A stretch of DNA of 64,000 bases from contig JBHLMN010000004.1 of the NCBI GenBank assembly GCA_048938105.1, positions 96,001-160,000 of the forward strand, in the 5' to 3' direction. A program made the translations under genes and the position numbers. Under the pieces are notes generated by a model. That model saw only the letters and a program-made list of their open reading frames with translations, made no database searches and was not told the origin of the DNA. Each line of letters opens with the position of its first letter. The first letter of the stretch is position 1. This document shows positions 15,553 through 51,154 of this stretch, piece by piece. Source of the stretch: Promethearchaeota archaeon. GTDB taxonomy: Archaea; Asgardarchaeota; Heimdallarchaeia; Hodarchaeales; Hodarchaeaceae.

Positions 15553-16830
15553 TTATTTCATTAATTGTTCAGCTATATCATCCTTAGCTTCAGCTATCTC
15601 TTTTTGGATCTCTAGATTAGTATTTCTTTCATTTGTCATTTGTTTGGTTTTTTCATCAATCCTTTTAATGATATTTAAATCAAATTGATTGAGCCTAGTC
15701 TTCTCTTTAGTTGAATGATTCAGATTAGAGAAGTCACCTTTAACACTATCCCCACGCTCTGCTGTTTTGATTTCATTTATTCGCTCCTGGTCCACACTAG
15801 CAAGTCTATCAGCTGTGACTAAATTAGATGTTTCTAAGGGATTTTCACCTAAAAATACTTCAAGTTGGCGTTCATTATACTTTCTTAATTGATGGATTTC
15901 CTCTGGGGAAAGATCAGGTATCTGTGGATCATATGAGGAGTCTGGTAGTAAATCTTCCATGATTTTCGACTCGTCCATTACATTGTGTCTTTTTTTAGAT
16001 TCAGTTTCCGTCCTTGGAGAAGATGGAATTGTATTTTGGGAATTATTGTTTTGATTAATTTTTAGATGAGGAATGACATCCCTATTCTCAACCTTCTTAG
16101 AGGTGTAAGTTGGGGGTTGTGGAAATGTGTTATTTGAGGGAGAAGGAGGAGGGGATTGAGAAGATCTATCGAGAAAAGCACCATGATAATCATGGGTTCC
16201 GTTCTCTTCTCGTTGGAGATCAGAGGATAATAATGGAGTAAAAACCAATCCAGGAATGATTTTCTCAATCGCATTTTGAAAGTCCAAGCTACGTTCACGA
16301 ATATTAAAATGAAAGTCTTTTAGTTGATTCAGTGAGGATAATAACTGAGTATAATTACACTCAGGGTAATCTAATGTAAGATTTAAGATAGTATTACCAG
16401 AATCTTCAATGATTCGGAATTGATGTCCTTGAAGATTTTTCAAGACGGAAAGACGGAAGTCTTGAGGTTTCCTATCAACCTGAAAATTTATCAACACGGT
16501 TGTTAGGTTCTCTTTTTGGGAGTATAAGATAATAGCTTCTGGAATATCATCCAATTGAAAACGATCTTGGGTTGTTGGGAGATTGGTAAAATGAAAGGTC
16601 TCCAACTGGTGCTTAATATCTACATTATCCAAAATAAGGCCGAGAAAATATCCAACAGACCCCAGTACTAATACCATGAGAACACTTGCATCCGTAACAT
16701 AATAAAACAGGCATCCACAGAGAAAACCGATAATTGCGGTTAGCACACTGCGCTCTAACATTAATATTTCATCCATTATATGATATTTTGTTCCAGAGTA
16801 TTTATACTCAAAATCAGAGCTACTGGTCAT
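15553..16830 (-). CDS. Two-TM membrane protein with a cytoplasmic domain and disordered C-terminus
   Basis: N-terminal TM hairpin, Pro/Ser-rich linker and terminal coiled-coil; starts 8 nt downstream of the helicase stop. Confidence 0.7.
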   Translation of the reverse strand: MTSSSDFEYKYSGTKYHIMDEILMLERSVLTAIIGFLCGCLFYYVTDASVLMVLVLGSVGYFLGLILDNVDIKHQLETFHFTNLPTTQDRFQLDDIPEAIILYSQKENLTTVLINFQVDRKPQDFRLSVLKNLQGHQFRIIEDSGNTILNLTLDYPECNYTQLLSSLNQLKDFHFNIRERSLDFQNAIEKIIPGLVFTPLLSSDLQREENGTHDYHGAFLDRSSQSPPPSPSNNTFPQPPTYTSKKVENRDVIPHLKINQNNNSQNTIPSSPRTETESKKRHNVMDESKIMEDLLPDSSYDPQIPDLSPEEIHQLRKYNERQLEVFLGENPLETSNLVTADRLASVDQERINEIKTAERGDSVKGDFSNLNHSTKEKTRLNQFDLNIIKRIDEKTKQMTNERNTNLEIQKEIAEAKDDIAEQLMK

Positions 16831-16838
16831 AGTGGCTA

Positions 16839-19628
16839 CTAGTGGAGAGTTTGAGCGAACTGATTGTAATCATCGCCTAAAGGGATCTCCATTCCTTCAA
16901 GAATGTACATGAGAAGAGACCGTGCTCCAAATTTATCCAATTTGGTGTTATTATGACTACAGCGAGGTAGAAATGTGCATTTCGGACATCCTTGAGGATC
17001 TTTACATTCACAAGCCAAAATATCATAAGCTCTGGTGAATAGCTCGGAGAGATGATCCAAAAGCATAGCACAGACTCCTGAACCATTAGCTTGGTCAAAC
17101 AGTAAAACATAGCCTTGGGGAATTAAGGCTAATCCTCCAATTTCACTGAGCTGCCCCCCAATAAAGGGCAGACTAGCGTGGAGAAGGACATGAACCAAGG
17201 TATGCAACGCAGCTCTAAAAGTACTATGATCAGAACCTATAATATCTGTAAAAAGAGTTGGAACCTGAAAAAGGAGGCCTTTGGAATGGGAGGAATAATA
17301 GAGAGGATCACGAAGTCTATTCATGGAAGTACCATTCGGAGACTCTAAAACATAGCCAAAAACCGTCTGAAGGACCTTTGTTTCAACTGATACGACTTCT
17401 AGTCCAAAGACATGATGATGAGTATGGAGGGTCAAGATCTCTGGTTTTAGCGAGGAGAGAGGATAAGTATTTCCCCACACACTCTTTGGCTTGATAAGCT
17501 CTGCTACCCCTCGTATTCCGTTAAAATAAAAACTAATCACTTGATATCGTGTGCCCCCAGAATAATAAAACGCCCCAGGATATAGTTCTAACATAGCAAT
17601 AGGCATCACACGTTTTCCGATTTTTCTTCCCCCACGTATTTTTATCACCACCTCGTGGTTCCTCCCTCGAATCGAATATCTCCGTGCTTGTTCTTGTCCT
17701 TCTTGCGTTGGCAGGAGAATGGATTCATCTACCTGATTCAGAAGATTTTCTGCTACTAATCTACTAAGGATGGGAGCATATTCAGGAAACTCACTCACAT
17801 CAATGGGATGATCGAGGGAGGCACATAGTAACTGGTTTTCTGTGACGTTAGGATTGTCGGGGTCAAAAAATACTTCTTCTATGTCTTGATAATACCGCTT
17901 GGGGTATCGATAATAGTAGTTAGAAATTGGATCTTCGCTATTTAGATGAATGATTGCTACTGCTTCTTGGCCCTTCCGACCTGCCCTTCCGATTCTTTGC
18001 ATAGCACGATTTACTGCAATAGGAGGCGTAATAACAATGTCTAAATCTCCAATATCGATTCCCAATTCAAATGTGGGTGTAGCTACCAATAAATCGATTA
18101 TACTGTCTTTGAAATCAGTTTCAACCTGTTCTCGGATTTTCTTGTCTAGTCCTGCCCGATGGATACCAACTCTTTTTGCAGTCCCTCCCAGCTTCTGATA
18201 TAAGATTTCGGCATTGCGATGCGAGTCTTGAAATACCAACGTCTTACCATGATATTTGATGCTGTTGACAAGACTTGTTACACTATCCAAAGTCGACATT
18301 CCTTCAAAGGGAGCTACCATTAAGAAGTGTAAACGGCCCCGTCGTCCATTCTGACATTCGATTACTGTGATAGGCCGATCGAGCAATTTTGAGGCAAACG
18401 ATTGCGCATTGGCAACTGTAGCTGAGGCTCCAATAAATTGTAGTTTTGTTTGTATTATTCGTTCTAAACGGCGCAATATGAAGTACATGTTTGAGCCAAA
18501 AGTTCCAGTATACGAATGGATTTCATCTAAAATGACGATTTTAAGGCCTGCGAGTAAATCCTGGAAATAACTGCTATTTTTCCCGATTCCTAAGTGATAA
18601 TGCAAAATATCAGGGTTAGTAATCAAAATTTCAGGGGGATCAGCATAGATTTTTTTCCGCCAATAGTGGCTAGTGTCTCCATCAAAGACTCACACTGACA
18701 AGCCTAGAAGGGATGCGAAATCCTCAATTTTCCGAAGTTGATCTTTAGCCAAGGCTTTCATCGGATAGATCAAAAGTAATTGTACTCCACAGTCCTTATA
18801 CTCACGAATCTTGAGTAGTGTTGGAAGAAGGAACGCCTCGGTCTTACCATTCCCTGTGGGGGCAACAATGCACACATCTTGATCCTTTTGAATCATGGTT
18901 ATCGCTTCTTCTTGAAATTGGAAAAAGTGAGTGATTTCCCGTTTCTTTAACGCTTTAACAAGATTAGGGTCGTTTAAAATGTCAATTCTCTTTCCTATCT
19001 CCCCAGGTTGGTTTTCAAACAGACGATAATCAACTATTTGATGCTGTGCAAATTGGATTATTTTTTGGATAGGTGTTGGGAGATCCTTAATGGGAATGTC
19101 AAACCGATTATGGAATTCAGTCAGTGTGATGACACTTTTCGGAGCCTTACTTTGGATAGTCAGTCCATCCTGAAGACCTAGCTCCTGATGAGATGGCAAT
19201 TTTTTCAATTTTCCTGAACTCGCAAGGCGAAGTTCTGTTGCCTTTTGTAGGCAAGCATTTCCCCCCGTCAGGGAATAATATTTTTGTAAACAGAACTCTC
19301 CTTTCCGAACGTCTCTCTGCTTAAAATAGAGTGAAGATAACTGCTTCCATGTTTCCCTATGCGTGTTATTTAATTGTAATATTCGGCCAAACGCCTTCTT
19401 GGCATCACTAATTTGTTTGAATTTCTGAAAGTGATTAGCGATTTCCGTGAGTAACTCAACAGACGGGGTGGGATTCTCTGAAGCTACAATGGCTCTAAAC
19501 TCTGCTAAGATGTCTTCAAGATCACGAAATTCCTGATAATCCTCTATAGCGGAACGATAGCGTGTCCACAAGTTTTTTTTGTTGTCCCCATGAATAGTCA
19601 TGATTTCATCAATGATGATTATTAACAT
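16839..19628 (-). pseudogene. Hrq1/MrfA-like DEAH helicase with DUF1998 Zn domain and N-terminal TPRs, interrupted by one in-frame TGA at 18692-18690 (nonsense mutation, readthrough or sequencing error)
   Basis: Motifs APTGNGKT, YPMKALAKDQ, DEIH, SAT, ATPTFELGIDIG, QRIGRAGR and CECKDPQGCPKC. The frame continues across the stop: LLGLSV*VFDGDTSHYWRKKIYADPPEILITNPD. Confidence 0.85.
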
Positions 19629-19715: not shown

Positions 19716-22319
19716 TTATTCTTCTTTCTTTTTCACTTTTAACTCCTCAAGGAGGGAGCGTTGTTGGGTATGTAGGGTATAATATAGATCGAAAATCCCT
19801 GTTTTAGGATAAAGTGTTAATCCCAGTTCACGGGAAAACTTTTGCAAGCGTATTAAGTTATCATCAGGGAGAAAATCGTCTAGGTTTTTTTCAGGCCTTG
19901 AAGAAATGGCTGAAGCTTCTAATGCTTGATGGAGTTCTTCGGAGTTTGATTGTTGTTGGAGATGGCTGATCTCAAGTAGTAAGTTATTGACCATTGAGTG
20001 AGCTAGATCAAATAAATGGCGAAAATCCTGCCATTCTAATGAGTCAATCATATGTAAATCGTGGTATTCCGCAATTCGTAACCATGGAATGGAGGTGGCT
20101 CGAAGATAACGAACATAATTGACTAGACTACCTACCAAGTTTTTGACTTTTGTATTTGTCCTCTCCCTGTCGGCTTGGGAAGACGAAATATCAAAGTATG
20201 ATTCTAATCGCTGCAACTCTTGGCTGACTGCGTGAACCATGTCATGGGTAAGCGGAGCAGGGAGCTCATTGACGAAATCCAGCTGCGTTTGATAGTATTC
20301 TCGTCCTCGTTCTGTGATCGTCCAATAGGTGCTACCACTCTCTAAACCTGTGGTAAATAAGCCAAGTGACTGAAATTGGTCTAGCGCGAGCACCCCTTGC
20401 TTATCTTCCTCAATTAATCCCATGACTTCATCCACCTGACGTGGTTGGTAAATAAGCAGTTTCAAGAGCTTCATAAGTAGTTCATATTTTATGGGAGTTA
20501 ATCCCAACGTTTCTGACCCACGTTGCTTCGCCTCTGGAATAAATATGGGTTTAAAATCAATTGGACAGAAGTATTTCAGTTTGAAATGGTAAGCATTATT
20601 CTGGGGACTATCTTCACGGAAGAGGAGCCCCTCTCCTTCAGCAATCCCTACAAACTGTTGTTGGGTGTATATAGGGGATTTATGGGTGAAAGAAATTTCG
20701 TGTGATGTGAGGAGTAATTCCCGATCTTGTGCACTCGCGAGCTTCAGATAAATACTGTTCTTGATCTCTTCAAAGTTATCCATATTCGAAGCTAATGCCT
20801 GTAAGCTTTGGCTTCCAAGCATCATGATGTTATCGCGAGCGATGGTTTTACATGCATCCACCACAATGGATGAAATGATTTCCCGCTGACGGCTATAAGC
20901 TGTTCGTCTACTAAGGAATTCAGCTGCGTGTGTTAACACTACGCATCCATTTTTCATATTCTGTGAGAGGTAATGAAGGAGAAATCCAATAGTTGCGCGA
21001 CGAATAAGTGGTGGTTGAGCACCAAATTGAAAAAATGTTGCTGTTCTGTCCCTAACTAATGTGTTACTATAATGGCCCATGAATGCAGCATAATTAACTT
21101 CGGGAAACGACCGAAATTGCTCAAGAATACCTGCCAAGGCTTCAATAGCCATCATGTCTGCAAACATCATGTCTATCCCTTCTGTGTTGACTTGTACATC
21201 ACTCTCATTTCCCCCTCCAATACTCAACTTCACTTCTTGTAATGTAAATAATGAATTCGATTCCGCAGTCTTTTTGATTTGTGCTTCTAATGGTACTGAG
21301 TACCGTGCTGTAAGATATTCTGAAGTATGTAAAGAGCTGAGGAGAATTTGACTGATGAGATGCGATTTCCATGCTGCTCGCGCTTTGGCTGTCGTTTTTT
21401 TCCCACTTGCTGAAATAGGGATGATAACATCACATAGGTTGAGATGGATATTTGTTCCTAAGCGAAACAATTGTAGGTGGAAATCAGGAGGAGGACTGGC
21501 CTGAAAGTGCTTAATGAGACCATTGAGTTCGCTATAGGTATCGATAACGAAAATTTGGCGGGTAGAGTCAGTTCCCGCTAATGAGGCAATCAGTCGTTGG
21601 AGAATGGTAAGTACTTCGGTATTGGTTGAGCCACAGACGAGAACGGATCCTGTACGTAACGCTGGGAATCCTACTGGCAGCGCGGGGTTTGTAATCTGTG
21701 TACCTACCTTATGTACAACAGGTAGATCAGGGGCAACATAATGTTGGATGTGTCTCGATGGCACTCGATCCAATCGGAGAAATGGCTCAACCCACTTAGA
21801 TTGAAACCCTCTATAACCTTTAAAAACCGTGATACCTTCAGGTACACGTTCCCCATGGAAATGCACCCGAATGAGTCTTTCCCCACTCACTAGGGTAACT
21901 TGACATCCACTTGCTTCGAGAATGGTATGAACCATTGAACGCCGCTTTACGAATGCTTTTCGGGCATCTTGGACAATAGTTGGCAGTATTCGCTCTGATT
22001 TCACCCAGAATTTATACGAGACACGCACAAGGAGAAGTAAGGCGGTATGAGAGTCATCTCTATCATTCTGTTTTGATTTGGTGAATTGTGCGGGAAAAAT
22101 TTCTCGAATAACTTCGACTCCAGGATGATTGGTAGCATAAAACAGCGTTTGTGAGGCATTCTTAATGTCCTTGCGTGGTTGTAGAGCAAATATTGAGATC
22201 AACCCTGCCAGTGGGGCCCATGGGATGAATACTTTATCATAATCAATTTTTTCCAAGATAAAGAGGGTGGATTTATCCTCCAACACTTTAGACGCAAGCT
22301 TCGTGTGCCTGATAGCCAT
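19716..22319 (-). CDS. Catalytically degenerate VirB4/HerA (DUF87)-like P-loop protein with a C-terminal wHTH
   Basis: Motif order matches HerA/VirB4, but Walker A reads GSTNTEV and Walker B reads VVLTHAAEF. Also IFVIDTYSEL, MLGSQ, IYLKLASAQD, GEGLL and wHTH wing WTITERG. SD AGGAG. Confidence 0.6.
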   Translation of the reverse strand: MAIRHTKLASKVLEDKSTLFILEKIDYDKVFIPWAPLAGLISIFALQPRKDIKNASQTLFYATNHPGVEVIREIFPAQFTKSKQNDRDDSHTALLLLVRVSYKFWVKSERILPTIVQDARKAFVKRRSMVHTILEASGCQVTLVSGERLIRVHFHGERVPEGITVFKGYRGFQSKWVEPFLRLDRVPSRHIQHYVAPDLPVVHKVGTQITNPALPVGFPALRTGSVLVCGSTNTEVLTILQRLIASLAGTDSTRQIFVIDTYSELNGLIKHFQASPPPDFHLQLFRLGTNIHLNLCDVIIPISASGKKTTAKARAAWKSHLISQILLSSLHTSEYLTARYSVPLEAQIKKTAESNSLFTLQEVKLSIGGGNESDVQVNTEGIDMMFADMMAIEALAGILEQFRSFPEVNYAAFMGHYSNTLVRDRTATFFQFGAQPPLIRRATIGFLLHYLSQNMKNGCVVLTHAAEFLSRRTAYSRQREIISSIVVDACKTIARDNIMMLGSQSLQALASNMDNFEEIKNSIYLKLASAQDRELLLTSHEISFTHKSPIYTQQQFVGIAEGEGLLFREDSPQNNAYHFKLKYFCPIDFKPIFIPEAKQRGSETLGLTPIKYELLMKLLKLLIYQPRQVDEVMGLIEEDKQGVLALDQFQSLGLFTTGLESGSTYWTITERGREYYQTQLDFVNELPAPLTHDMVHAVSQELQRLESYFDISSSQADRERTNTKVKNLVGSLVNYVRYLRATSIPWLRIAEYHDLHMIDSLEWQDFRHLFDLAHSMVNNLLLEISHLQQQSNSEELHQALEASAISSRPEKNLDDFLPDDNLIRLQKFSRELGLTLYPKTGIFDLYYTLHTQQRSLLEELKVKKKEE

Positions 22320-22361: not shown

Positions 22362-22380
22362 CCTTTTTATATTCAAGATT
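22362..22380 (-). promoter_or_regulatory. Cluster promoter motif copy AATCTTGAATATAAAAAGG
   Basis: TATA about 45 nt upstream of ATG 22319; matches the other copies. Confidence 0.65.
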
Positions 22381-22720
22381 CAATTATGTTGAAGATATTT
22401 GCTGAAGTCGTCTTTCAAGGTATATTTTGTAGCTGAGTGACTAATTAATTTCAGTAAAATGAGTATTCACTTGTCTTAATTTGTGGATTTTATGTTTAGC
22501 TTCAATTCATTTAATCCTCTTATTTCGTGTTGTTTTCTCATCCTTTACCTTACACTGCTATAGAACGCTTCACATGGGTTCAAATCGCTCTCTGTTCTTC
22601 AAACTCCTCAATAGCATTGAAAAGTATGTCTTTGATAGTTTTGGGAGTATCGGATGCAATGATAGAATATATCAGGCGTTCTTCTTCTAAGCTCTCAATT
22701 TTAATCAATGCTATTCACTC

Positions 22721-23518
22721 TCATTCAAAAATCAGTAATTCTAAATCGCTATGATCACAAGTGCTCCACTTCAAGGCTCGTTTCCTTCCATATTGTGTTA
22801 TAGTAGTTTTAAAGTGAAAATATGTCAGTAAGGTATCTAAGAGTGTTTCAAAGAAGCAATCCGAGGAACTTGAGCATAATAGACACTGATCACAATCAAT
22901 GGAATACTGAGTAGCTCGTCTCTCGATATGATTTCCATTTAGCGAATCAAGAATTCTATCAATAATTGTAAGCACATCACGCCTCTGTTGAATTGCATCT
23001 GCTAATTGGAATCTTTGAAGAAGCCTTTGAGCCACCAATATACCTAAATCTTCTAAATCTTTTGCTAAAAAGTCGTTTTCACTGATTAACCGTTCATTCT
23101 GCAACACCATCCCCAACTCAAGTCGTGTGTTGAGTCTGACTAAGTGTTCTCTCACTTTATCCTTGAAGGTATCAAAGATCCGTAGATTGAGGACAATTTC
23201 ATCTTGCCATTGTATTTCAGGAAAATTTCGGAAGAACTCGTGGATCAAGTACTCGAAGTCAGCCTCACACCAAACAGGATTAATGGTGGAGTCCAGCGCA
23301 AGCATAAAAATTAAATCATTTTGTTTCCTGAACATAAATGTGACCTTGGCCATTTGGAGAGCATTAATGGTATCCTCCTCGACTTGACTCACAAAGCTGT
23401 AGAGTGCACTGATTAAACTTGAACGGAGGAAACTATCAGAATCACTTTCATGGTGAGGTAGTTGAACTTGGAAAAGCATCAAACCATGGTCAAGAACACA
23501 AAGAAATTCACGGATCAA
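22721..23518 (-). CDS. Longin-domain protein with a C-terminal Cys-rich V4R-like domain
   Basis: Longin pattern GLMLF...LRSSLISALYSFVSQV...IFMLALD; C-terminal CDQCLLC-x5-CFF; SD GGAGGT. Confidence 0.6.
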   Translation of the reverse strand: MIREFLCVLDHGLMLFQVQLPHHESDSDSFLRSSLISALYSFVSQVEEDTINALQMAKVTFMFRKQNDLIFMLALDSTINPVWCEADFEYLIHEFFRNFPEIQWQDEIVLNLRIFDTFKDKVREHLVRLNTRLELGMVLQNERLISENDFLAKDLEDLGILVAQRLLQRFQLADAIQQRRDVLTIIDRILDSLNGNHIERRATQYSIDCDQCLLCSSSSDCFFETLLDTLLTYFHFKTTITQYGRKRALKWSTCDHSDLELLIFE

Positions 23519-23589
23519 TTTTGAGAACCTCCAAAAGTAAAATTAACCATATTTTCGACCAGAAATCTATTTAACTCGAGTTTCACTAC

Positions 23590-24477
23590 TCAGTCCTCCC
23601 ACTCATAATCCTCGTCTAAGTCATGAAACTCAGCCTCTGTTGAGCTCACAAGTACACCCTTCTTTGATTTGAAAGGGACGAAGAACACTTGTGGCCTATT
23701 TAATTTCCCATGGAGCGCCAATAGCGCCACCAGTAATAATCCCCACAAATAAATGATAAACGCCACAGTGCCTATCAATACAGCGATCAAGAAGTCTTCT
23801 GTCCGCCAGAATGTGTCTAGGGTGAAAATTATTAGGACAAGGACACTGTTAAAAAGAAAAACAGGCCGAATATTCAGATTCAAAATGATCGTATTGATAA
23901 CGGACAACCAGTCATTCATTGTGGGCATCATGACGCCAAAAATCCCCACAAAAAAGTAGAAGTGGAGTGCGGCGCCAGCAACTGTAAGAAACACCTGAGA
24001 AAGTGGAGTGATCAGTGCCAAAGGAGTGATTAATATGTACCCTACCAACAATACCCAGCCAAACCGACTGGGAGCCATCGCGACTCGTCGTGCATAGTCA
24101 ATACGATTGACCGAGATAATAAGCATAGCGTTCTCATCGAATCGTCCAAGGCCAGTCGAAAGACTTGAACGGATGTGATGTTGGTCGTAAAGATCATCAA
24201 TGTCTTCGCTTTCCTCTTCTTTTTGTTCTAGGTCACGATAAATCTCCTTTGCCATGAACACATGTAGGTACACATGAAGGAAACGAAAAGGAAACCAAAG
24301 GATATTAGCAATCCGTTTCAGAAATGGGAGGATATGCAGGATCAATTGTAATAGCATATACATAAATAGTTGTTTGATAAAGAAGAGTATTAGATCCCGT
24401 GGGTCGAGGATTTCATGTACATACCAGTCAAAAAAACCCAGTAATCCTAAAGCAATCAGATCAAAGACAGTACTCAT
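23590..24477 (-). CDS. Membrane protein, M50-like zinc peptidase fold with degenerate HExxH
   Basis: PFRFLHVYLH (V in place of E), RVAMAP and MPTMND motifs; multiple TMs. Confidence 0.5.
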   Translation of the reverse strand: MSTVFDLIALGLLGFFDWYVHEILDPRDLILFFIKQLFMYMLLQLILHILPFLKRIANILWFPFRFLHVYLHVFMAKEIYRDLEQKEEESEDIDDLYDQHHIRSSLSTGLGRFDENAMLIISVNRIDYARRVAMAPSRFGWVLLVGYILITPLALITPLSQVFLTVAGAALHFYFFVGIFGVMMPTMNDWLSVINTIILNLNIRPVFLFNSVLVLIIFTLDTFWRTEDFLIAVLIGTVAFIIYLWGLLLVALLALHGKLNRPQVFFVPFKSKKGVLVSSTEAEFHDLDEDYEWED

Positions 24478-24739
24478 TATGCATCCCTAACCTATCCTTT
24501 GACTTCATGAATGTATAGTAATGAATCAAACGTTCTCTCTCTAAAGCGGCAAGTGCATACGATAACTGAGTTTCTACATCCGTTAGAATATGAAGTAAAG
24601 TATCGACCACTGACAGATAGTCTGGGAAGGCTGGTATGGTCTGTATCTGATAGAGGTCGGTTAAGAATTGGAGGAACTCCTGAAGAGTACCCTGAAGTTC
24701 TTGTACCCAGTATCCTAGACTAGTCTTTTCTATCAACAT
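24461..24739 (-). CDS. Small helical hypothetical protein
   Basis: Has a promoter motif copy upstream and overlaps the start of the next gene. Confidence 0.6.
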   Translation of the reverse strand: MLIEKTSLGYWVQELQGTLQEFLQFLTDLYQIQTIPAFPDYLSVVDTLLHILTDVETQLSYALAALERERLIHYYTFMKSKDRLGMHNEYCL

Positions 24740-24768
24740 AATATCTCAAAAGACTATTCTGGAGTACT

Positions 24769-24786
24769 CCTTTTATACTAAAAATC
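24769..24786 (-). promoter_or_regulatory. Cluster promoter motif copy GATTTTTAGTATAAAAGG
   Basis: TATA about 32 nt upstream of ATG 24739. Confidence 0.7.
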
Positions 24787-24976
24787 AACATGCAAAAAGG
24801 GAAATGGTTCCAATGTTCATAATTAGAAACTCAATATGTAGAAGGATATAATTAAGTGAGGGATAAGTCCTAAATTCACAAAAGGCGATTAAACGAGGAA
24901 ATTAGTTATTTCAAAATAGGTTCCAGGCTTTAAATGATCTATCACTATAATGCAATTGATAATCATTCTTAGTTAT

Positions 24977-25495
24977 TTAAGCCTCTCCCTTCGAGTGACT
25001 GTTACGGGAGCGTTCCCATAAAGGAAGAGTTGAAAAATGTATATGATATCGTTTATTCATTGCACGAATTACTTCTTTCCGTACTTCAGGTAGTATTAAT
25101 TGCTTTTTCGCATGGAGTCGTACTCTGAGCGCTCCTTCTTTTGAGATTGTTATTATTCCTACTCCTGTTTCTTCAGCCCACGACAGTTGTTGCTTTTTGG
25201 TGATAGAGTCAAGGATTTCAAATTGCTCCTCTGGACAAACCAGATAACAGTAGTCACAAAATTTCCGGTATAATACAGGATGTTGGAGATGTAGCTGTGT
25301 TTCTGCTTCAAAGAAGTGGATAGAACTGTCAATTTGGCTTATTGCTGCTAGATCAATTCGGAACTGCTCTTGGTCAATCATTCTTTGTAGATCCAAGTGT
25401 TTTGAAGTGATTTGCAACTCCAGATACGTCTGAAAGTGTACTTGTTTGACTAAAATGGTTTCAAGTCGTATGATCAGTTCTTTCTCTGACAACAT
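24977..25495 (-). CDS. PD-(D/E)xK-like (MmcB-like) nuclease-fold protein
   Basis: RIDLAA...HFFEAET...YRKFCDYCYLVCP...GVGII; ExE in place of ExK. Confidence 0.5.
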   Translation of the reverse strand: MLSEKELIIRLETILVKQVHFQTYLELQITSKHLDLQRMIDQEQFRIDLAAISQIDSSIHFFEAETQLHLQHPVLYRKFCDYCYLVCPEEQFEILDSITKKQQLSWAEETGVGIITISKEGALRVRLHAKKQLILPEVRKEVIRAMNKRYHIHFSTLPLWERSRNSHSKGEA

Positions 25496-25522
25496 AATTA
25501 GTCATATTCGATTCTTAGTTTC

Positions 25523-25541
25523 GATTTATATAATCAAAATG
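25523..25541 (-). promoter_or_regulatory. Cluster promoter motif copy CATTTTGATTATATAAATC
   Basis: TATA about 30 nt upstream of ATG 25495; a more divergent copy. Confidence 0.5.
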
Positions 25542-25636
25542 AGTCTTTTGAGTTCTTTTTTACTTCAAAGTGAGACTTTCGAGTTCTTAAGCATCATTAA
25601 GAATTCTAGGTAGAGGATAACTACTTTTCAGGTGTA

Positions 25637-25903
25637 TTGATTTTGACTAGTTCTCATAGTATTTCTGGACCTAATCTCCCCTTTCTTGATGAGATTTTTT
25701 GTAACAGCCCTTTGTGTCAGATTTGTGAATATGCTAGTGTATCAGGGGGTGTTTGTTTATTATTACTGAATAGAAGGTTCCCTGTTAATCTAATCGTGAA
25801 AGACTCACAAGTTGTGAGTTGCTCAGCCCATCGGAACTGGATCCAGTCGTTAGACAATGAGAAATTATCTAGTCAAATAGATAGCCACAAATTTTCTGGT
25901 TAG
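25637..25903 (+). CDS. Small Cys-rich putative metal-binding protein
   Basis: C-x4-C-x2-C-x9-C...CxxH pattern; SD AGGTG; ends 8 nt before the Hef-like gene. Confidence 0.55.
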   Translation: MILTSSHSISGPNLPFLDEIFCNSPLCQICEYASVSGGVCLLLLNRRFPVNLIVKDSQVVSCSAHRNWIQSLDNEKLSSQIDSHKFSG

Positions 25904-25911
25904 GGATCATT

Positions 25912-27837
25912 ATGACCACACATGACGAATCTCCGCATTTAGAGAAACTTAGGTTTAATCCTTCATTACAAGAACAGCTTCTTCTTCCTAAAGTCCATGA
26001 ACAAAATTTACTAGTAATTTACTCTACAGAAGATACATTAATACGTATTCAGGCATTGATCATTCTTTTTTATTTGAACCAATCCACAAACCATACCTCA
26101 AGAGTTCTTATTCTAACTAAAAGGAATAACCAGGAAAAGTTCCAAACCTTACTCAAAACACATTTAAACCAAAGAACGACAGTTCTTAACGGAACCATAC
26201 TCCCACATGCAAGGAAACTTGACTACAATCGTTATTCAGTGATTTTGTCTACCCCACAAACTACCAAGAACGATCTAGCTGATAATTTCTTCCTATCTGA
26301 TCACTTTTCTTTAATTATAGTCAATCAAGCCGAAATGGCAACATCTTCTAGCTCACTGAGATATTTAGTTAATAAATTAACTAATTTTAGGGTAATTGGA
26401 TTTACTCAGGTGACTAATTCAGACCATTTAGAATCTGTGTGCAAAAACTTGCAGCTAAAGAGAGTGGTTCAGTTAAAGGAACCGCTTTCAACCCTCGAAC
26501 GATCCAATATCCAGCATTACTCGATTCCCTTACCACAGGAATATTTTTTCATTCTGGAAATCCTGGATCAAATAAAGAAACATACATTCGAAGAATTAGC
26601 AAGACTAGGATTTGATGTTTCCTCGAAGAGTACCTATCGAGACATTACTGCGATCCATGAGAGTATTAAAAAAGATAACAATAGGAAAGCTCTTATCTGT
26701 ACAGCAAATCTCCAACGAATTATTATCCTTCAACGTATTATTATTTCCCAAGGCTTTCCTGCTGCTCTTGATTATTTCACAACACTTGAATCACACCTTA
26801 TGAGGGATCAAAATTACCAAGGGAAAAAGGCCATCAGGATTTTTCTTGGGGATATGAAAATAGCGAAGCTTCGAGAGTTTCTTGCTATACACAAACAACT
26901 CCAACATCCTAAATCCCAAATGATCCTTAAAATAATCAATCAATATAGAATAGGGATTTCCATTGTGACCAACAATTACTACAATGCGTCTTTTTTAAAG
27001 AATTATTTAAAGGTAAAGGGCTTTTCTGTACTTCAAATACGTGAACCCATTAGTTCTTTGACGGATATTAATCTCCAACGAGCTCTTTTACCATTCACCG
27101 AACAGAAAGTTCAGATTTGTATCACAAATACTGTCAATGAGCTTATTGCTCGAAATGCTGGAGTAATCATCGCGTATGATGTAAATGCAGGTATCGTTGG
27201 CACTTTGAATAGTTTGGATGTAGACATTCCTAAGGTGTTCTTATTGGCTAAACAAACTAATGAAGAGGCTAGGTTTTTCTATCTCAAAAGATTAGGGCTT
27301 CACTCTCATAAACAGAGTCAGAACTTCAATAACCTCAATGAGACCTTAAAAAGATATCATAGGGAAAATTCTACAATTGCTAATGTTACGGATCCCCAAT
27401 CAACCATTTCTACTAGCGAAGATTCTCATGTCTCCTTAACCTTTAATAGTATTTTGTATGAACTTGGAATACCATATCTTTTCTCACAAAAAGAATACGC
27501 TATTCAATCTGATGATGATGTTAGCTTTCCTGGTTTTATACTCAATAACAAAATTTCTTTTCTTCTCCTCATTCCTGACACGATTGACTTTTTTATGTCT
27601 TCAACACCACAAAAAATCTTTAGTCAACTAAAAAAAGAATTTTCTCATGTACACTTGATTCTTTTACCTGATAGTTTGATGACCCTTAGTTTTAACTTTC
27701 GCTGCGACATTTTACATACAGCAAATCACTTTAGGATATGGATTTCTTTTCTTTTACAAGCTCAAGATATTCCTCAGTTAGTTACACGAATAATTAATAA
27801 GCCATTATATCGTTCTAGTCAACCAGTTTCTCTATAA
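25912..27837 (+). CDS. Degenerate Hef/FANCM-like SF2 helicase with a remnant ERCC4-like C-terminal domain
   Basis: Matches Hef segments (ILSTPQTTKNDL, SLIIV, VIGFT, HPK, LLAKQTNEEARF), but Walker A reads YSTEDTLI and DEAH reads NQAE. Confidence 0.65.
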   Translation: MTTHDESPHLEKLRFNPSLQEQLLLPKVHEQNLLVIYSTEDTLIRIQALIILFYLNQSTNHTSRVLILTKRNNQEKFQTLLKTHLNQRTTVLNGTILPHARKLDYNRYSVILSTPQTTKNDLADNFFLSDHFSLIIVNQAEMATSSSSLRYLVNKLTNFRVIGFTQVTNSDHLESVCKNLQLKRVVQLKEPLSTLERSNIQHYSIPLPQEYFFILEILDQIKKHTFEELARLGFDVSSKSTYRDITAIHESIKKDNNRKALICTANLQRIIILQRIIISQGFPAALDYFTTLESHLMRDQNYQGKKAIRIFLGDMKIAKLREFLAIHKQLQHPKSQMILKIINQYRIGISIVTNNYYNASFLKNYLKVKGFSVLQIREPISSLTDINLQRALLPFTEQKVQICITNTVNELIARNAGVIIAYDVNAGIVGTLNSLDVDIPKVFLLAKQTNEEARFFYLKRLGLHSHKQSQNFNNLNETLKRYHRENSTIANVTDPQSTISTSEDSHVSLTFNSILYELGIPYLFSQKEYAIQSDDDVSFPGFILNNKISFLLLIPDTIDFFMSSTPQKIFSQLKKEFSHVHLILLPDSLMTLSFNFRCDILHTANHFRIWISFLLQAQDIPQLVTRIINKPLYRSSQPVSL

Positions 27838-28009
27838 GAATCGTTCCACTAAACTCTATCATATCCTAGGTTATTTTGATAATCAAACGAAATATCAATA
27901 ATGAAAAAAAAGACTCAGGGAGACTGGATCTGTTCGATTGAATGTGACAATGATCACACCTAAAAGGATTCATTAAGGGAAATGAATTCATATGTTTTCT
28001 TCTTTCTCT

Positions 28010-29752
28010 TCAGCGTAAACCGAATAACCTTTTCATTTTCGCAAAGTAGAGGTCATAGGTATTATATAATGTTTGAAGACTTTGATAAACACGTACTGGT
28101 GGTAACATCGCCCGCATTTTCACTACTCGATAATCTAGAATAAGACTTGCAGCAAAATCCGACTCTGATCTAATTCCTCTCCCAATGGCTTGGGAGATAC
28201 TTCGTGTGACTGGAAGCATAGATATGAGTTTCGCTGTTCGCCACCCCCATTTTTGCTGATACAAAGAGTTGAGTAACCGGTTCGTTGCGTCTGGTCGAGG
28301 AAAGGGGAGTCCTGCTATGATAATCAATGACAATAAGCTTCGATTTGTCTTCGAATCCAGTATTTCAATCCCTTCAGAGAGCTTCCCTCCAATCACCCCA
28401 AATATGAGTTCATGGTTTTTCTCTCTCAATTCATCAATGAAAAAAGGGATTATACCAAGATTTTCGACATACACCTGTGGTATTGAAATATGAGCGAGGA
28501 TTTTTTGTTTCATTTCATGAGATGTGGCAAAGACAATGGTATGAAACGGATTACTGGAGTGCATCCGTTGTATGACGGTAGCCATTGCTTCATATGTTTT
28601 GGCACTTCGTTCAGTGAATTTAGACGTAAATTGACGATGATAAAGTATACCATTCAAACTGAACTGAAAGTCTGAGGGTATTCGAAGCGTAGGATAAGAC
28701 AATCCATATAGTGCCAGATATAGGGATAATGGTGTAAAAGTTCCCGACATCAGGATGACCCGAGTGAAATGCTTGTTCACAAAATCGAATGCTTGATGTG
28801 GGAAAGGATTCAGTTGGAGTAACTTGTTGTCTTCTGATATCCAAATATCTCCTCTTGAAGAAATGAAATCTTTGACTTTTAACAGCTGATTTTTTTCCAT
28901 GAGGGATAATTTGTATTCATGATCCAAGAATGCGTCTAATGCTGCCTCTGACAATGTTCGTGGTCTTTCCACTCTTCCATGATGTGAGCAGATCAACTCC
29001 TGTAACTCATCGATCACTTTTAAGGGGATAATTGTTTGAGCTTTATTTAAATCGTTCGTTGTGATCTCTGTTTCGATATCAGCTGTAAAATTATGCCCCT
29101 CGTCTATAATTGCCATGGTTTGTGGAAAAGAACTGCGTGAAAGAAGCTGGGAGAACATATTTTGAAGATTTTTACTTCGTAAATAGGTGTGTGTGGTAAT
29201 GACTATATTTGAATATGGTATACACCGTTTGATTACATGATAGGGACACCCAAACTCTTTAAACGCCTCTTGAAAAGCCTCAGTCGAAATTGCCTCATCA
29301 TGTGCTGTAATTGGGATTTGTTCGACAATAGCAGGGAAATCTTCCTCTGGAATAGATTTAGTCTGTTCAAGAAAGGGGCATCGTATTTGCCCACAGATCT
29401 TGTGATAGAAGTGGGGGATTTCGTCTCTTTTAATACATAAATCTGCTTTAAGAATGAGAGGAACAGCTGTTAAATAGCCATATTTTCGACTATTTGCGAT
29501 CTTATAAATCTCATTGAGGAATACCTGGAACACTTGTGTCTTCGTTCGAACAAAAATATATAATTGGTAGTTTTTTGATTTTACTAGCGGAAGTGCATGA
29601 ATCAACGCCATAATTGTTTTCCCAAATCCGACTGGGGCATGAATCATTGCTTTTGGATTCTTCTCAACAAATCGGAGAAACTTTGTTTGATAGGCCCGCA
29701 GTTCTGGATGAGGAAAGAGCTGTAGTGCTGGGGGAAGATTAGTATCAATCAT
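28010..29752 (-). CDS. xpd: XPD/Rad3/DinG-family Fe-S helicase
   Basis: Q motif RAYQ, APVGFGKT, four Fe-S Cys (LC..KIC..RCP..GCPY), DEGHN, SGT, SEGIE, GLPFP, QAIGRGIR. An alternative GTG start exists at 29821. Confidence 0.8.
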   Translation of the reverse strand: MIDTNLPPALQLFPHPELRAYQTKFLRFVEKNPKAMIHAPVGFGKTIMALIHALPLVKSKNYQLYIFVRTKTQVFQVFLNEIYKIANSRKYGYLTAVPLILKADLCIKRDEIPHFYHKICGQIRCPFLEQTKSIPEEDFPAIVEQIPITAHDEAISTEAFQEAFKEFGCPYHVIKRCIPYSNIVITTHTYLRSKNLQNMFSQLLSRSSFPQTMAIIDEGHNFTADIETEITTNDLNKAQTIIPLKVIDELQELICSHHGRVERPRTLSEAALDAFLDHEYKLSLMEKNQLLKVKDFISSRGDIWISEDNKLLQLNPFPHQAFDFVNKHFTRVILMSGTFTPLSLYLALYGLSYPTLRIPSDFQFSLNGILYHRQFTSKFTERSAKTYEAMATVIQRMHSSNPFHTIVFATSHEMKQKILAHISIPQVYVENLGIIPFFIDELREKNHELIFGVIGGKLSEGIEILDSKTNRSLLSLIIIAGLPFPRPDATNRLLNSLYQQKWGWRTAKLISMLPVTRSISQAIGRGIRSESDFAASLILDYRVVKMRAMLPPVRVYQSLQTLYNTYDLYFAKMKRLFGLR

Positions 29753-29795
29753 GGTGTTTCCACAGAGAATTTGTGGTAGACATTTCTGGAGGTAG

Positions 29796-30818
29796 TTATT
29801 TGGAATTAAAGTCTCGGACACCCTCGCTGGTAATTGCGAACTCTACTTTCCCATCAGGAAATTCAGGGCTTTTTGTTAATGAGGCAGTTCGTTTGGTTGC
29901 TTTCCCCTTTCGGATGAATATCCGAGTAGTAACCGTATGACCTACAATATTGCCTCCAACAGGCTTATTTGGATCCCCAAAAAATATCGCGTCAGGTTTG
30001 GCGGATACTTGGTTCGTCACGAGACCAATACAATTCATTATTTCAGCCTGTTTAGCAATAAACGCTAAATGTCTCCCAATCAGTTGTTGTCGTTCTGCCA
30101 GTGTTCCACGTCCCACGAACTCACTTCTGAAATGTGACATGAGGGAGTCTACAATTATCAGACCAACGTTTGGAACCATAGTAAGTGCCTCTTCGGTGAG
30201 TGCCATTTGGTGTTCACTATTGTAAGCTCTACCAACCGTAATTCGTGAAAGTACGGTGTCTGGATCTATATCTAATGCCTAAGCTATTTGTACTATTCGA
30301 TTAAAGCGGAATATTCCTTCTGAGTCGATCCAAATCACATCTCGGTCGAGGTATTTAACGCAATTAACTGCCAATTGGTGGGCAATCTGGGTCTTTCCAC
30401 AGCCATTCTCACCAGCGATTTCCGTGACACTTCCCGTTTCAAATCCTCCCCCTATGAGTTCATTGAACGTTTTTGATCCTGTCGTTAATTTTATCCGTGT
30501 TTTTGCTGCTTCCTCGTAATCTGTCCCTTTTTTTAATCCAAGGTCAAACTGTGCTCTTGCTTCACGGATTAGATGAGCTGCAGTTTTCTCCGCAATTCCC
30601 GAAATTTCAGTTAATTGAGCCCGTGTTGCTAGAGCTATCGCTTCTTTGCTTCCATAACCCGCAGTTTCTAGTCGTTGTCTTGTCGTGGGGCCAACGCCTG
30701 TTATTGTTTCTAAGAATGGTTTCTCTGAGGTTGTGTCCTTTTTCTTAACTTTCTTTGTCCTTTTCTCTTCAATTGGCTCAGAACTAATTCCTTCGTCTTT
30801 TGTTTCGACTTTTGCCAT
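29796..30818 (-). pseudogene. radA: RadA recombinase paralog interrupted by one in-frame TAG at 30281-30279 (340 aa if read through)
   Basis: HhH GVGPTT, Walker A GENGCGKT, IVDS, FRSEFVGRGTLAERQQ, TNQV. The frame continues across the stop: RIVQIA*ALDIDPDTVLSRITVGRAYNSEHQM. Confidence 0.9.
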
Positions 30819-30890
30819 CGTTTTTCACTTTATTCTTTTTTCTAGCTATATTGTTGTAAACCTTTGATCTGATTATGATTTAGCTCCCTG

Positions 30891-31004
30891 CCTTTTTATA
30901 CTCAAAATCACCAATTTTTCGAATTTCTAGTACAAAAATATAATTCTCATTCTTACCTTATATATTCAAAATCGATGGGAGAATAGATTTCTAGTATAAA
31001 AGAG
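30891..31004. promoter_or_regulatory. Tandemly duplicated back-to-back promoter module (four motif copies) between radA and the large surface-protein gene
   Basis: Minus-strand copies at 30891-30909 and 30956-30973; plus-strand copies at 30922-30940 and 30986-31004. Both pairs have a 12-nt spacer. Confidence 0.7.
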
Positions 31005-31056
31005 CTCACCAGTAATTAAGAGTGTAAGTATCGTAGAATGGTAGAGGTTATCAACA

Positions 31057-50293: not shown

Positions 50294-51154
50294 TTAGAGT
50301 ACTCTTTTAGGCGTTAATACTCGAAAACGTGGAAAAGAATAATAGTTATTAGTTTCATCTTCTATTAATGAGACTGAATTTGATTTAATTTTCTCGAATC
50401 CTTTTATCACTTCTTCTAAAAATGATCTATCTAGGGGTGTCTGATTATGAGCAGGGAATAGAATTTCAACGGAGTCTAGAAGACTTTTTAGTCTTTTAAT
50501 CGAAATGATATAATCTTGGAGGTTACTTCCCTGTAAGTGAGCATATAAAGGCCCTTGATAGATGACATCACCTGTAAATAAATGCCCAAAATCATGATTC
50601 CAAAGACAAATAGATCCAGGTGAATGACCAGGCAAATGAAAAACAGTCAATTCATACTCCCCTATATCAATAATGTCACCATCTTGTAATAATCGAGTTG
50701 GATTTGATGGAAAAATCCGATATTCCTTAAGATGAAAATCAGGGGGTAAAGCTCTCCAAATTTTTTCCTTTGTCATTTGCGTTTTTAAAAAATCATGTCC
50801 TACGCCAAGTTCTATTTCCTTTGCTTCTATCTTATGGATAGCGATTTCCTCAAAGAGATGATTTCCTCCAATATGATCCCAATGTGAGTGTGTATTTATT
50901 ACTTGAATAGGTAGTTTTGTATATTGCCGTGTGACTGATTTAATATTTGCAATTCCCATTCCAGTATCAATCATTGCAGCCTTTTCTGATCCAATTATTA
51001 AGTAACTGATAACTTCTTCTGAGTGGCCTGGTTCTTGGATTGCATAGATATCTGGACAGTTTTTTCGTTGATCCTGTGGTTCAGAGACCTCAAACCAATT
51101 TTGAGACATTTTCATCATATTTATCCAAAAAACTTTTCTACACAATTTGGGCAT
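50294..51154 (-). CDS. Metallo-beta-lactamase-fold hydrolase
   Basis: IDTG, THSHWDHIGG, PGHSPG, FTGD, PAH. The true start is probably one of the ATGs near 51118. Confidence 0.85.
   Translation of the reverse strand: MPKLCRKVFWINMMKMSQNWFEVSEPQDQRKNCPDIYAIQEPGHSEEVISYLIIGSEKAAMIDTGMGIANIKSVTRQYTKLPIQVINTHSHWDHIGGNHLFEEIAIHKIEAKEIELGVGHDFLKTQMTKEKIWRALPPDFHLKEYRIFPSNPTRLLQDGDIIDIGEYELTVFHLPGHSPGSICLWNHDFGHLFTGDVIYQGPLYAHLQGSNLQDYIISIKRLKSLLDSVEILFPAHNQTPLDRSFLEEVIKGFEKIKSNSVSLIEDETNNYYSFPRFRVLTPKRVL

Follow-up and report, generated by a model that had tools for sequence, protein, structure and literature searches.

Archaeal core promoters contain an AT-rich TATA box centred ~26-27 bp upstream of the transcription start, and in haloarchaea the selection of promoters is reportedly carried out by multiple TFB/TBP paralogs, a finding attributed to Facciotti et al. 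2007 (PNAS). The closest described system to the one considered here is the damage regulon of the Sulfolobales, in which a T-rich, non-palindromic A(N)TTTC element lies upstream of weak BREs (TFB-recognition elements), serves as the binding site of Orc1-2, an AAA+ protein with a winged helix, and drives ups, ced and tfb3 (PMC5817253, PMC6061795). Asgard archaea are the closest known archaeal relatives of eukaryotes and their gene regulation is nearly unstudied; our literature searches returned no described promoter motif, cis-element or regulon for Asgard archaea. Here we describe an 18-bp element, which we call the box, in 64 000 nucleotides of DNA from a Promethearchaeota archaeon of the order Hodarchaeales (contig JBHLMN010000004.1, positions 96 001 to 160 000; this whole stretch is the window), part of an assembly of 5.85 Mb with 35% G+C. 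The box is a sharply defined motif that is specific to a small group of genes, conserved in related genomes and tied to the first genes of transcription units, and the genes that it marks very probably form one dedicated regulon. It would be a composite core promoter, RATTTYKAR + TATWWAA + RS, heading every unit of a lineage-specific, recombination/repair-like gene set in one genus of Heimdall/Hodarchaeales-type Asgards. This set would comprise a RadA paralog, the HerA/VirB4-like protein p867, an XPD-like helicase, p88 with a Hef-like protein, p172, p425, an MrfA-like helicase, LuxE/LuxC-like enzymes, an ERCC4 nuclease, a membrane/longin-like trio and a surface-protein operon.

The consensus of the box is RATTTYKAR-TATWWAA-RS. 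When 61 unique sites are combined into a logo, 18 positions are informative (R A T T T Y K A R T A T W W A A R S) and the flanks are flat; positions 16 and 17 are among the informative ones, although they were left out of site picking. Similarity among the copies is limited to these 18 bp. The box is non-palindromic and orientation-specific; the consensus GATTTYKARTATWWAARS contains neither inverted nor direct half-sites, and every copy faces its downstream gene. The TATA part is nearly invariant, and from the place and polarity of TATWWAA we infer that it is used as a TATA box. The T-rich RATTTYKAR abuts this presumptive TATA box, and hence appears to take the position of the BRE. An initial annotation of the window had described the upstream element as T-rich and unlike a purine-rich BRE. 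This is correct. Positions 2-8 of the box read TTTYKAR, while tRNA and flank promoters are mostly of the GAAA type and the canonical flank promoter GGAAAC-TTTATATA is present as it was quoted, the contrast with a general BRE being based on tRNA promoters and single examples. The end of the box lies 21-73 nt from the start codon in the window, and 17-91 nt across the genomes examined. At several sites the TATA box and the ATG are ~20-25 nt apart, which fits leaderless mRNAs and suggests leaderless or short-leader transcripts; at other sites a Shine-Dalgarno sequence is found further downstream.

The window contains nine copies of the box:

16798..16815, minus strand: box GATTTTGAGTATAAATAC, p425 promoter; 18.9 bits; 24 nt past the stop codon of the MrfA-like helicase gene and 21 nt before the p425 ATG at 16776, which the orthologs support
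22363..22380, minus strand: box AATCTTGAATATAAAAAG, p867 promoter; 14.9 bits; 43 nt before the ATG at 22319
24769..24786, minus strand: box GATTTTTAGTATAAAAGG, promoter of the p92-p295-p265 unit; 20.6 bits; 29 nt before the ATG at 24739
25524..25541, minus strand: box CATTTTGATTATATAAAT, p172 promoter; 15.5 bits; 28 nt before the ortholog-supported ATG at 25495
25575..25592, plus strand: degenerate box ACTTTCGAGTTCTTAAGC, candidate promoter of the p88/Hef-like unit; 10.0 bits
30892..30909, minus strand: box GATTTTGAGTATAAAAAG, proximal radA promoter; 22.4 bits; 73 nt before the ATG at 30818
30922..30939, plus strand: box AATTTCTAGTACAAAAAT, distal promoter of the p1604 (surface-protein) operon; 14.0 bits
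30956..30973, minus strand: box GATTTTGAATATATAAGG, distal radA promoter, in the second 64-nt unit; 22.8 bits
30986..31003, plus strand: box GATTTCTAGTATAAAAGA, proximal promoter of the p1604 operon; 18.6 bits; 53 nt before the ATG at 31057

The matrix scan recovers all seven copies listed in the initial annotation, each at its position and on its strand, together with two that the list lacked, the strong copy at 16798-16815 (minus strand) and the degenerate one at 25575-25592 (plus strand). The gene-proximal copies had been placed 30-75 nt upstream of start codons, and the measured distances are 28-73 nt. Weaker candidates proposed upstream of 23518 and 19628 were not substantiated, there being no match of at least 6 bits at either place; the genes starting there probably ride on upstream units, and the box at 22363..22380 probably also drives the helicase gene downstream of p867. 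The 238-bp gap between radA and the p1604 operon, at 30819-31056, contains two 64-nt units, each a back-to-back pair of boxes facing outwards, where the relatives examined have one unit only. Tandem duplication of box promoters occurs at three places in this genome, with a period of 60-64 nt and two to three units (window 30891-31004, and on other contigs C28:110304-110443 and C27:318126-318203). The relatives examined have single units, and the near-constant period of 60-64 nt spans three unlinked loci.

How specific is the box? Upstream regions were scanned for a forward match of at least 12 bits within -200..+30. Equal frequency upstream of housekeeping genes, which the initial annotation had named as the outcome that would speak against a regulon, was not seen: the box precedes 18 of 3080 first-in-unit genes (0.6%, the same rate as in the reverse orientation), and the best score in 34 tRNA upstream regions is 3.3 bits, so that none has a box. 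Many of these tRNA regions have a GAAA-type element before a TTTA-type box. None of the 634 operon-internal genes has a box at the 12-bit threshold. With a matrix made from the sites of relatives only, the 15.1-kb cluster yields six matches that reach 14 bits, compared with an expectation of 0.11 (Poisson P ~2e-9). In the window, every match reaching 14 bits lies in the interval from 16.8 to 31.0 kb, except one at 50311 that lies inside a coding region. Column-permuted matrices give genome-wide match counts about equal to those of the real matrix except at the top scores, and the top-scoring genome matches of the real matrix are the regulon sites. The box is not a general promoter, and its clustering is beyond chance.

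ZOOPS (zero or one occurrence per sequence) expectation-maximization (EM) on 2169 upstream regions did not find the box and gave no strong general motif, a k-mer strand-asymmetry test revealed no strong genome-wide motif, and flank profiles around TATA-like cores showed no general motif and no T-rich BRE genome-wide. Most of the remaining genome matches are at chance level, and those inside a GH3 gene (C22), before an SDR gene (C6) and in the coding region at 50311-50328 of the window were not counted. The sites in relatives were picked with a matrix seeded from the window, so that their scores are not fully independent of it, and the related genomes are themselves non-independent samples; the seeding has no bearing on the alignments made by eye, the flat flanks, positions 16-17 or the contrast with internal genes.

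The box is conserved. In ~15 congeneric genomes it is found before the first gene of each unit, comprising the radA paralog, the surface-protein operon, p172, p88/Hef-like, p425, the MrfA-like helicase and the LuxE/LuxC-like genes. Orthologs of the XPD-like helicase with 60-88% identity are present in 17 of 20 congeneric genomes in a syntenic neighbourhood, and the commonest order, found at seven loci, has p1604 divergent from radA-p867-xpd, hef641-p88 divergent from p172, and p425 with the MrfA-like helicase divergent from LuxE-LuxC. At orthologous promoters the flanking sequence diverges around conserved boxes. When the regions upstream of p172 and p425 were inspected without supervision, nothing but the box stood out as a conserved block, and in 8-9 of 10 species it keeps a fixed distance from the start; the p425 box is kept in nine of ten and that of p172 in eight of ten at the same distance, despite the proteins being only 33-68% identical. 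The proximal radA box is kept in six species as one arm of a back-to-back pair, the proximal box of the p1604 operon is kept in five relatives, and the p88 promoters of relatives carry clearer copies than that of the window, at 9-13 bits. The radA/p1604 and helicase/LuxE gaps each contain two outward-facing boxes, separated by spacers of 1-30 nt that vary in length and sequence. Because of this variation the paired boxes are two promoters, and not one dyad.

The box also follows the boundaries of transcription units. Genes that are first in their unit mostly score 9-22 bits, with a few degenerate copies lower, in contrast to ~6 bits or less for luxC, hef641 and the operon-internal p867 and xpd genes; the one exception is an xpd gene that stands apart from radA. 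There is no box upstream of the XPD-like helicase of the window. The p867 gene provides a natural experiment. In the seven species in which it lies inside the radA operon with the upstream region contained in the locus, there is a single box within 1.4 kb, that of the radA promoter ~1.1 kb upstream. In the eight species in which p867 is alone as a unit, this genome included, there is a box 17-91 nt upstream, and five p867 paralogs have one at 38-61 nt. These sequence comparisons (the conserved block at p172 and p425, the paired gaps, the first-gene contrast and the natural experiment of p867) show the box to be selected as a putative promoter element. Thus the dedicated regulon with a special promoter that the initial annotation proposed has held up well, with a box that is kept at orthologous promoters, missing before operon-internal genes, gained with new units and rare elsewhere.

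A TTTC-RR-ATATTTAAG box resembling the motif of the window has been noted in two bidirectional gaps of other Hodarchaeales genomes. A degenerate IUPAC pattern is no commoner than its reversed control in three genomes (G021, G022, G027), and even in G009, this pattern being too loose. More distant paralogs of the XPD-like helicase (31-35% identical) in two congeneric genomes have back-to-back boxes ~0.9 kb upstream (L084 10857-10926; L085 7479-7567), which suggests paralogous operons under the same control.

The box is not restricted to the cluster. The initial annotation considered the motif to be cluster-specific, which is not strictly so in this genome: boxes are also found elsewhere, before two LuxE/LuxC-like operons and an ERCC4 nuclease gene. 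The strongest matches outside the window precede these two paralogous LuxE/LuxC-like operons, with three boxes 60-62 nt apart at C28:110.3 kb and two boxes 60 nt apart at C27:318.1 kb; the LuxE/LuxC operon of relatives is a neighbour of the cluster and has retained its box. A gene encoding an ERCC4-HhH nuclease of 465 aa (C56:14003-15397) has a box 22 nt upstream, and among 12 homologs in relatives six are preceded by a box scoring 12 bits or more, compared with a background of ~0.6% per upstream region scanned. The ERCC4-HhH family is patchy and multi-copy in the genus, and a paralog of p265 (39% identical) lies directly upstream of the ERCC4 gene (C56:14003-16316). A further box of 20.7 bits at C18:141070 (minus strand) is located ~30 nt before small open reading frames (ORFs; ~95-130 aa) that have no family match, and these are possible further members of the regulon. 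Two box-like matches (C59:28251 and C56:12734) sit in a longer, near-identical repeat, with ~40 nt of common flank on each side.

The genes of the cluster are as follows:

15553..16776, minus strand: p425, a membrane protein; orthologs are 33-49% identical and adjoin the helicase in relatives
16839..19628, minus strand: MrfA/Hrq1-like DEAD/DEAH helicase with an MZB zinc domain (Pfam DEAD, Helicase_C, MZB; TIGR03817)
19716..22319, minus strand: p867, predicted HerA/VirB4-like protein with winged helix and helical domain (Foldseek, structural model)
22721..24739, minus strand: ORFs p92 (24461-24739), membrane protein p295 (23590-24477) and p265 (22721-23518)
24977..25495, minus strand: p172, a weak match to the sce7726 family; orthologs are 56-68% identical
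25637..27837, plus strand: p88 (25637-25903) and Hef-like SF2 helicase-type protein (25912-27837); synteny kept in relatives
28010..29821, minus strand: XPD/Rad3/DinG-like helicase (Pfam DEAD_2, Helicase_C_2); second or third gene of the radA unit
29796..30818, minus strand: RadA paralog, ~42% identical to the four other RadA genes of the genome
31057..37550, plus strand: divergent operon of a 1604-aa Ig-domain surface protein (p1604), a YdjM-like membrane hydrolase and p361 (Pfam Big_13, Y_Y_Y, YdjM)

Many of these proteins are unfamiliar. There is no Pfam, PADLOC or NCBIfam match for p425, for p88 and p867, or for p92, p295 and p265; the last three genes are probably one transcription unit, and a homolog of p295 is found near the cluster in one related genome (G010). 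The Hef-like protein matches the NCBIfam Hef nuclease model in its N-terminal (helicase) half only (E 1.6e-23). The p1604 operon adjoins radA in relatives too.

Two genes of the cluster are interrupted. The radA paralog, otherwise intact, contains a single in-frame TAG at 30279-30281 (minus strand), a position where relatives encode E, K or Q. In the MrfA-like helicase there is an in-frame TGA at 18690-18692 (minus strand); relatives have K or E there. Pyrrolysine at the radA TAG was considered and rejected, there being no PylS in the genome. Since the relatives carry ordinary codons at both positions and PylS is lacking, the stops are nonsense changes or assembly errors, and not recoding. When introns were allowed, aragorn reported a tRNA with a CTA anticodon ('tRNA-Pyl') at C11:135861, which is probably spurious in a genome that lacks PylS. 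One of the two LuxE-like copies (C27:316619-318049) also has an in-frame TGA, and the orthologs of several relatives have single stops. The in-frame stops could reflect decay of the regulon, strain heterogeneity or sequencing error.

How might the box be read? By the rules established for Sulfolobus, a BRE has A at -3 and A or G at -6 (PMC5817253). The T-rich element of the box would be a weak BRE by these rules, and a dedicated reader is therefore likely. The housekeeping TFB alone would serve the box promoters poorly, and one dedicated, sequence-specific factor bound beside TBP would switch them together. Our preferred candidate for this reader is p867, which is encoded by the regulon and would regulate its own promoter as well. 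We consider the chances of this explanation as a whole, a dedicated factor at a composite promoter with p867 as the preferred candidate, to be about evenly balanced. The identification of p867 in particular is tentative, and less likely to be right than wrong.

The model of p867 matches HerA/VirB4 ATPases (Foldseek E 1e-8), with which its language-model neighbours agree, and none of the nine orthologs analysed has the Walker A lysine. The C-terminal part is modelled with a pLDDT of 80.5 as a winged helix plus a helical domain, for which the best matches in the PDB are all regulators of the PadR/MarR/ArsR type (Foldseek E 1.6e-3 to 5e-2). Compared with PDB chains as a sequence profile, p867 gives only weak winged-helix matches (E 0.15-0.8). 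The family is present in 19 of 20 genomes of the genus and both genomes of the sister family, and in none of 57 elsewhere in the class; thus it is confined to the order holding the cluster. The promoter of p867 itself carries a box, which suggests autoregulation.

A number of points weigh against this explanation. PadR/MarR-type dimers usually read dyads, and a non-palindromic 18-mer of the size of a BRE plus TATA box would fit recognition by TFB-TBP at least as well. The assignment of a winged helix to p867 depends on moderate scores. Two sister-family genomes have the cluster, and no box was seen in their short contigs, which do not reach as far as the radA promoter, nor is the degenerate pattern enriched in them; the co-occurrence of p867 and box is consequently shown within one genus only. 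Lastly, given the stops in radA, in the helicase and in one LuxE copy, part of the regulon may be decaying in this genome.

The most serious competitor of a dedicated regulator is a TFB paralog that would read the T-rich element as its own BRE, making the 18-mer a full BRE+TATA promoter and the regulon a matter of the level or activity of that TFB. The box is polar and non-palindromic, its T-rich element is rigidly spaced from the TATA box, and the total is exactly of BRE+TATA size, all of which agree with such a reader, as does a BRE that is weak for the canonical TFB by the Sulfolobus rules (PMC5817253). The initial annotation had raised the possibility of paralogs of either factor, and the genome does contain four TFB genes (C56:186.5 kb, C38:38.7 kb, C31:46.9 kb and C52:383 kb), but only one gene for TBP, next to the C38 copy of TFB, so that a TBP paralog is out. 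The four TFBs have 39-54% identity, and the recognition helix reads TEVTVRNRY, as usual for TFB, in one and TPVTIRNRF in the other three. Within the genus, however, the number of TFB genes varies between two and five with no correlation with the regulon. Two genomes, G009 (a single contig, 96% complete) and G011, have just two TFB genes, yet keep both cluster and box, while other families of the class that are without p867 have as many TFBs (1-4). No TFB gene is located in or beside the cluster, and none has a box. We know of no paralog-specific BRE that has been described as being as sharp as the box. We favour a sequence-specific regulator over a TFB paralog; we regard the former as having roughly an equal chance of being right or wrong, and the latter as rather doubtful.

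Other explanations have less to commend them. The box might be homologous to the Sulfolobales A(N)TTTC and read by a regulator of the Orc1/Cdc6 or a similar ATPase-winged-helix type, within a damage response that would be old among archaea. In register, positions 0-5 (R-W-T-T-T-Y) coincide with A(N)TTTC, with AATTTC as the reading at several sites, and the targets (recombinase, repair-type helicases, nuclease and surface protein) parallel the ups, ced and tfb3 genes (PMC5817253, PMC6061795). Against this, the hexamer is 3 nt from the TATA box (~-38 to -33) where that of the Sulfolobales occupies -44 to -39 upstream of a separate BRE, position 0 prefers G over A, the latter being present in 16 of the 61 sites, and at position 5 T and C are equally common, C being found in 28 of 61. 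Exact matches are a minority of the sites. A six-base T-rich likeness is in any case weak evidence in an AT-rich genome, and we consider homology to be quite improbable. If the box were simply the general or strongest core-promoter consensus of the organism, no dedicated factor would be needed; it does include a good TATA box, and one canonical flank promoter likewise ends in TATATAAGG. Yet this is contradicted by the rarity of the box before genes that are first in their unit (0.6%, a rate that the reverse orientation equals), by tRNA promoters that lack it and mostly have GAAA-type BREs, and by the EM and flank profiles in which no T-rich BRE emerged genome-wide, and it is very unlikely indeed. 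Nor is there much to recommend the view that the copies are non-regulatory repeats left by duplications or a mobile element, for all that tandem units of 60-64 nt occur at three loci and the matches at C59:28251 and C56:12734 lie within a longer repeat. The likeness is confined to 18 bp, the copies are always upstream of unit-first genes and in the orientation of the gene, and they are kept at orthologous sites and gained when a gene becomes its own unit; this origin is the least credible of all.

If a dedicated regulator reads the box, what would the regulon be for? By analogy, the box may be the cis-element of a DNA-damage or DNA-exchange response in Hodarchaeales-type Asgards, read at the BRE position by a regulator of a new kind, a HerA/VirB4-like pseudo-ATPase-winged-helix fusion, which would act there much like Orc1-2 at the T-rich element of the Sulfolobales. 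We put this forward as an unlikely, speculative proposal. If true, an ATPase-fold sensor and a T-rich pre-TATA element would be an old archaeal wiring of recombinase, repair helicases, nuclease and cell-surface genes. Whatever its reader, the box links genes that were so far related by position only, namely those of the RadA paralog, the XPD-, Hef- and MrfA-like helicases, the ERCC4 nuclease, the LuxE/LuxC-like enzymes and the giant surface protein, and this argues that the box-bearing genes act in one programme. Further members could be found by their promoters instead of by homology. The box is also a tractable handle, with 18 bp to mutate, some ten promoters to follow, and two classes of candidate reader in p867 and the TFB paralogs.

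The box shares features with several known systems while conforming to none of them. Like the operators of winged-helix PadR/MarR repressors it overlaps the BRE/TATA region where archaeal repressors act, and p867, which the regulon encodes, has a predicted PadR/MarR-like winged helix and helical domain. Unlike those operators the box is without dyad symmetry, and the winged helix of p867, a candidate binder only, is joined to a large HerA/VirB4-like domain in which the P-loop lysine is missing. In common with the canonical archaeal promoter, it has an AT-rich TATA-like octamer immediately preceded by a polar element, a fixed orientation with respect to the gene, and a distance to the start codon that is compatible with short or absent leaders; it differs in that the upstream element (TTTYKAR) is T-rich and not A/G-rich, the TATA part is nearly invariant, and it occurs at <1% of promoters. 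As in the haloarchaea there are several TFBs per genome, to which subsets of promoters might be assigned, in contrast to which there is here one TBP, and the number of TFB genes does not track the regulon. The comparison with the Sulfolobales damage element is the closest, but the box is not classed as a member of that system. The lineages differ (Thermoproteota and Asgard), damage induction and Orc1-2 binding are known for the Sulfolobales where the box is known from sequence, and the Sulfolobales element is separated from its TATA box by the intervening BRE whereas in the box the whole 18-mer, abutting the TATA box, is conserved. In both systems, nevertheless, the element is short, non-palindromic and T-rich, sits upstream of its TATA box and accompanies a BRE that is weak by canonical rules. 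An ATPase-fold regulator with a winged helix, demonstrated in the Sulfolobales, is proposed here, and in each case the element is common to genes of recombination, DNA handling and the cell surface.

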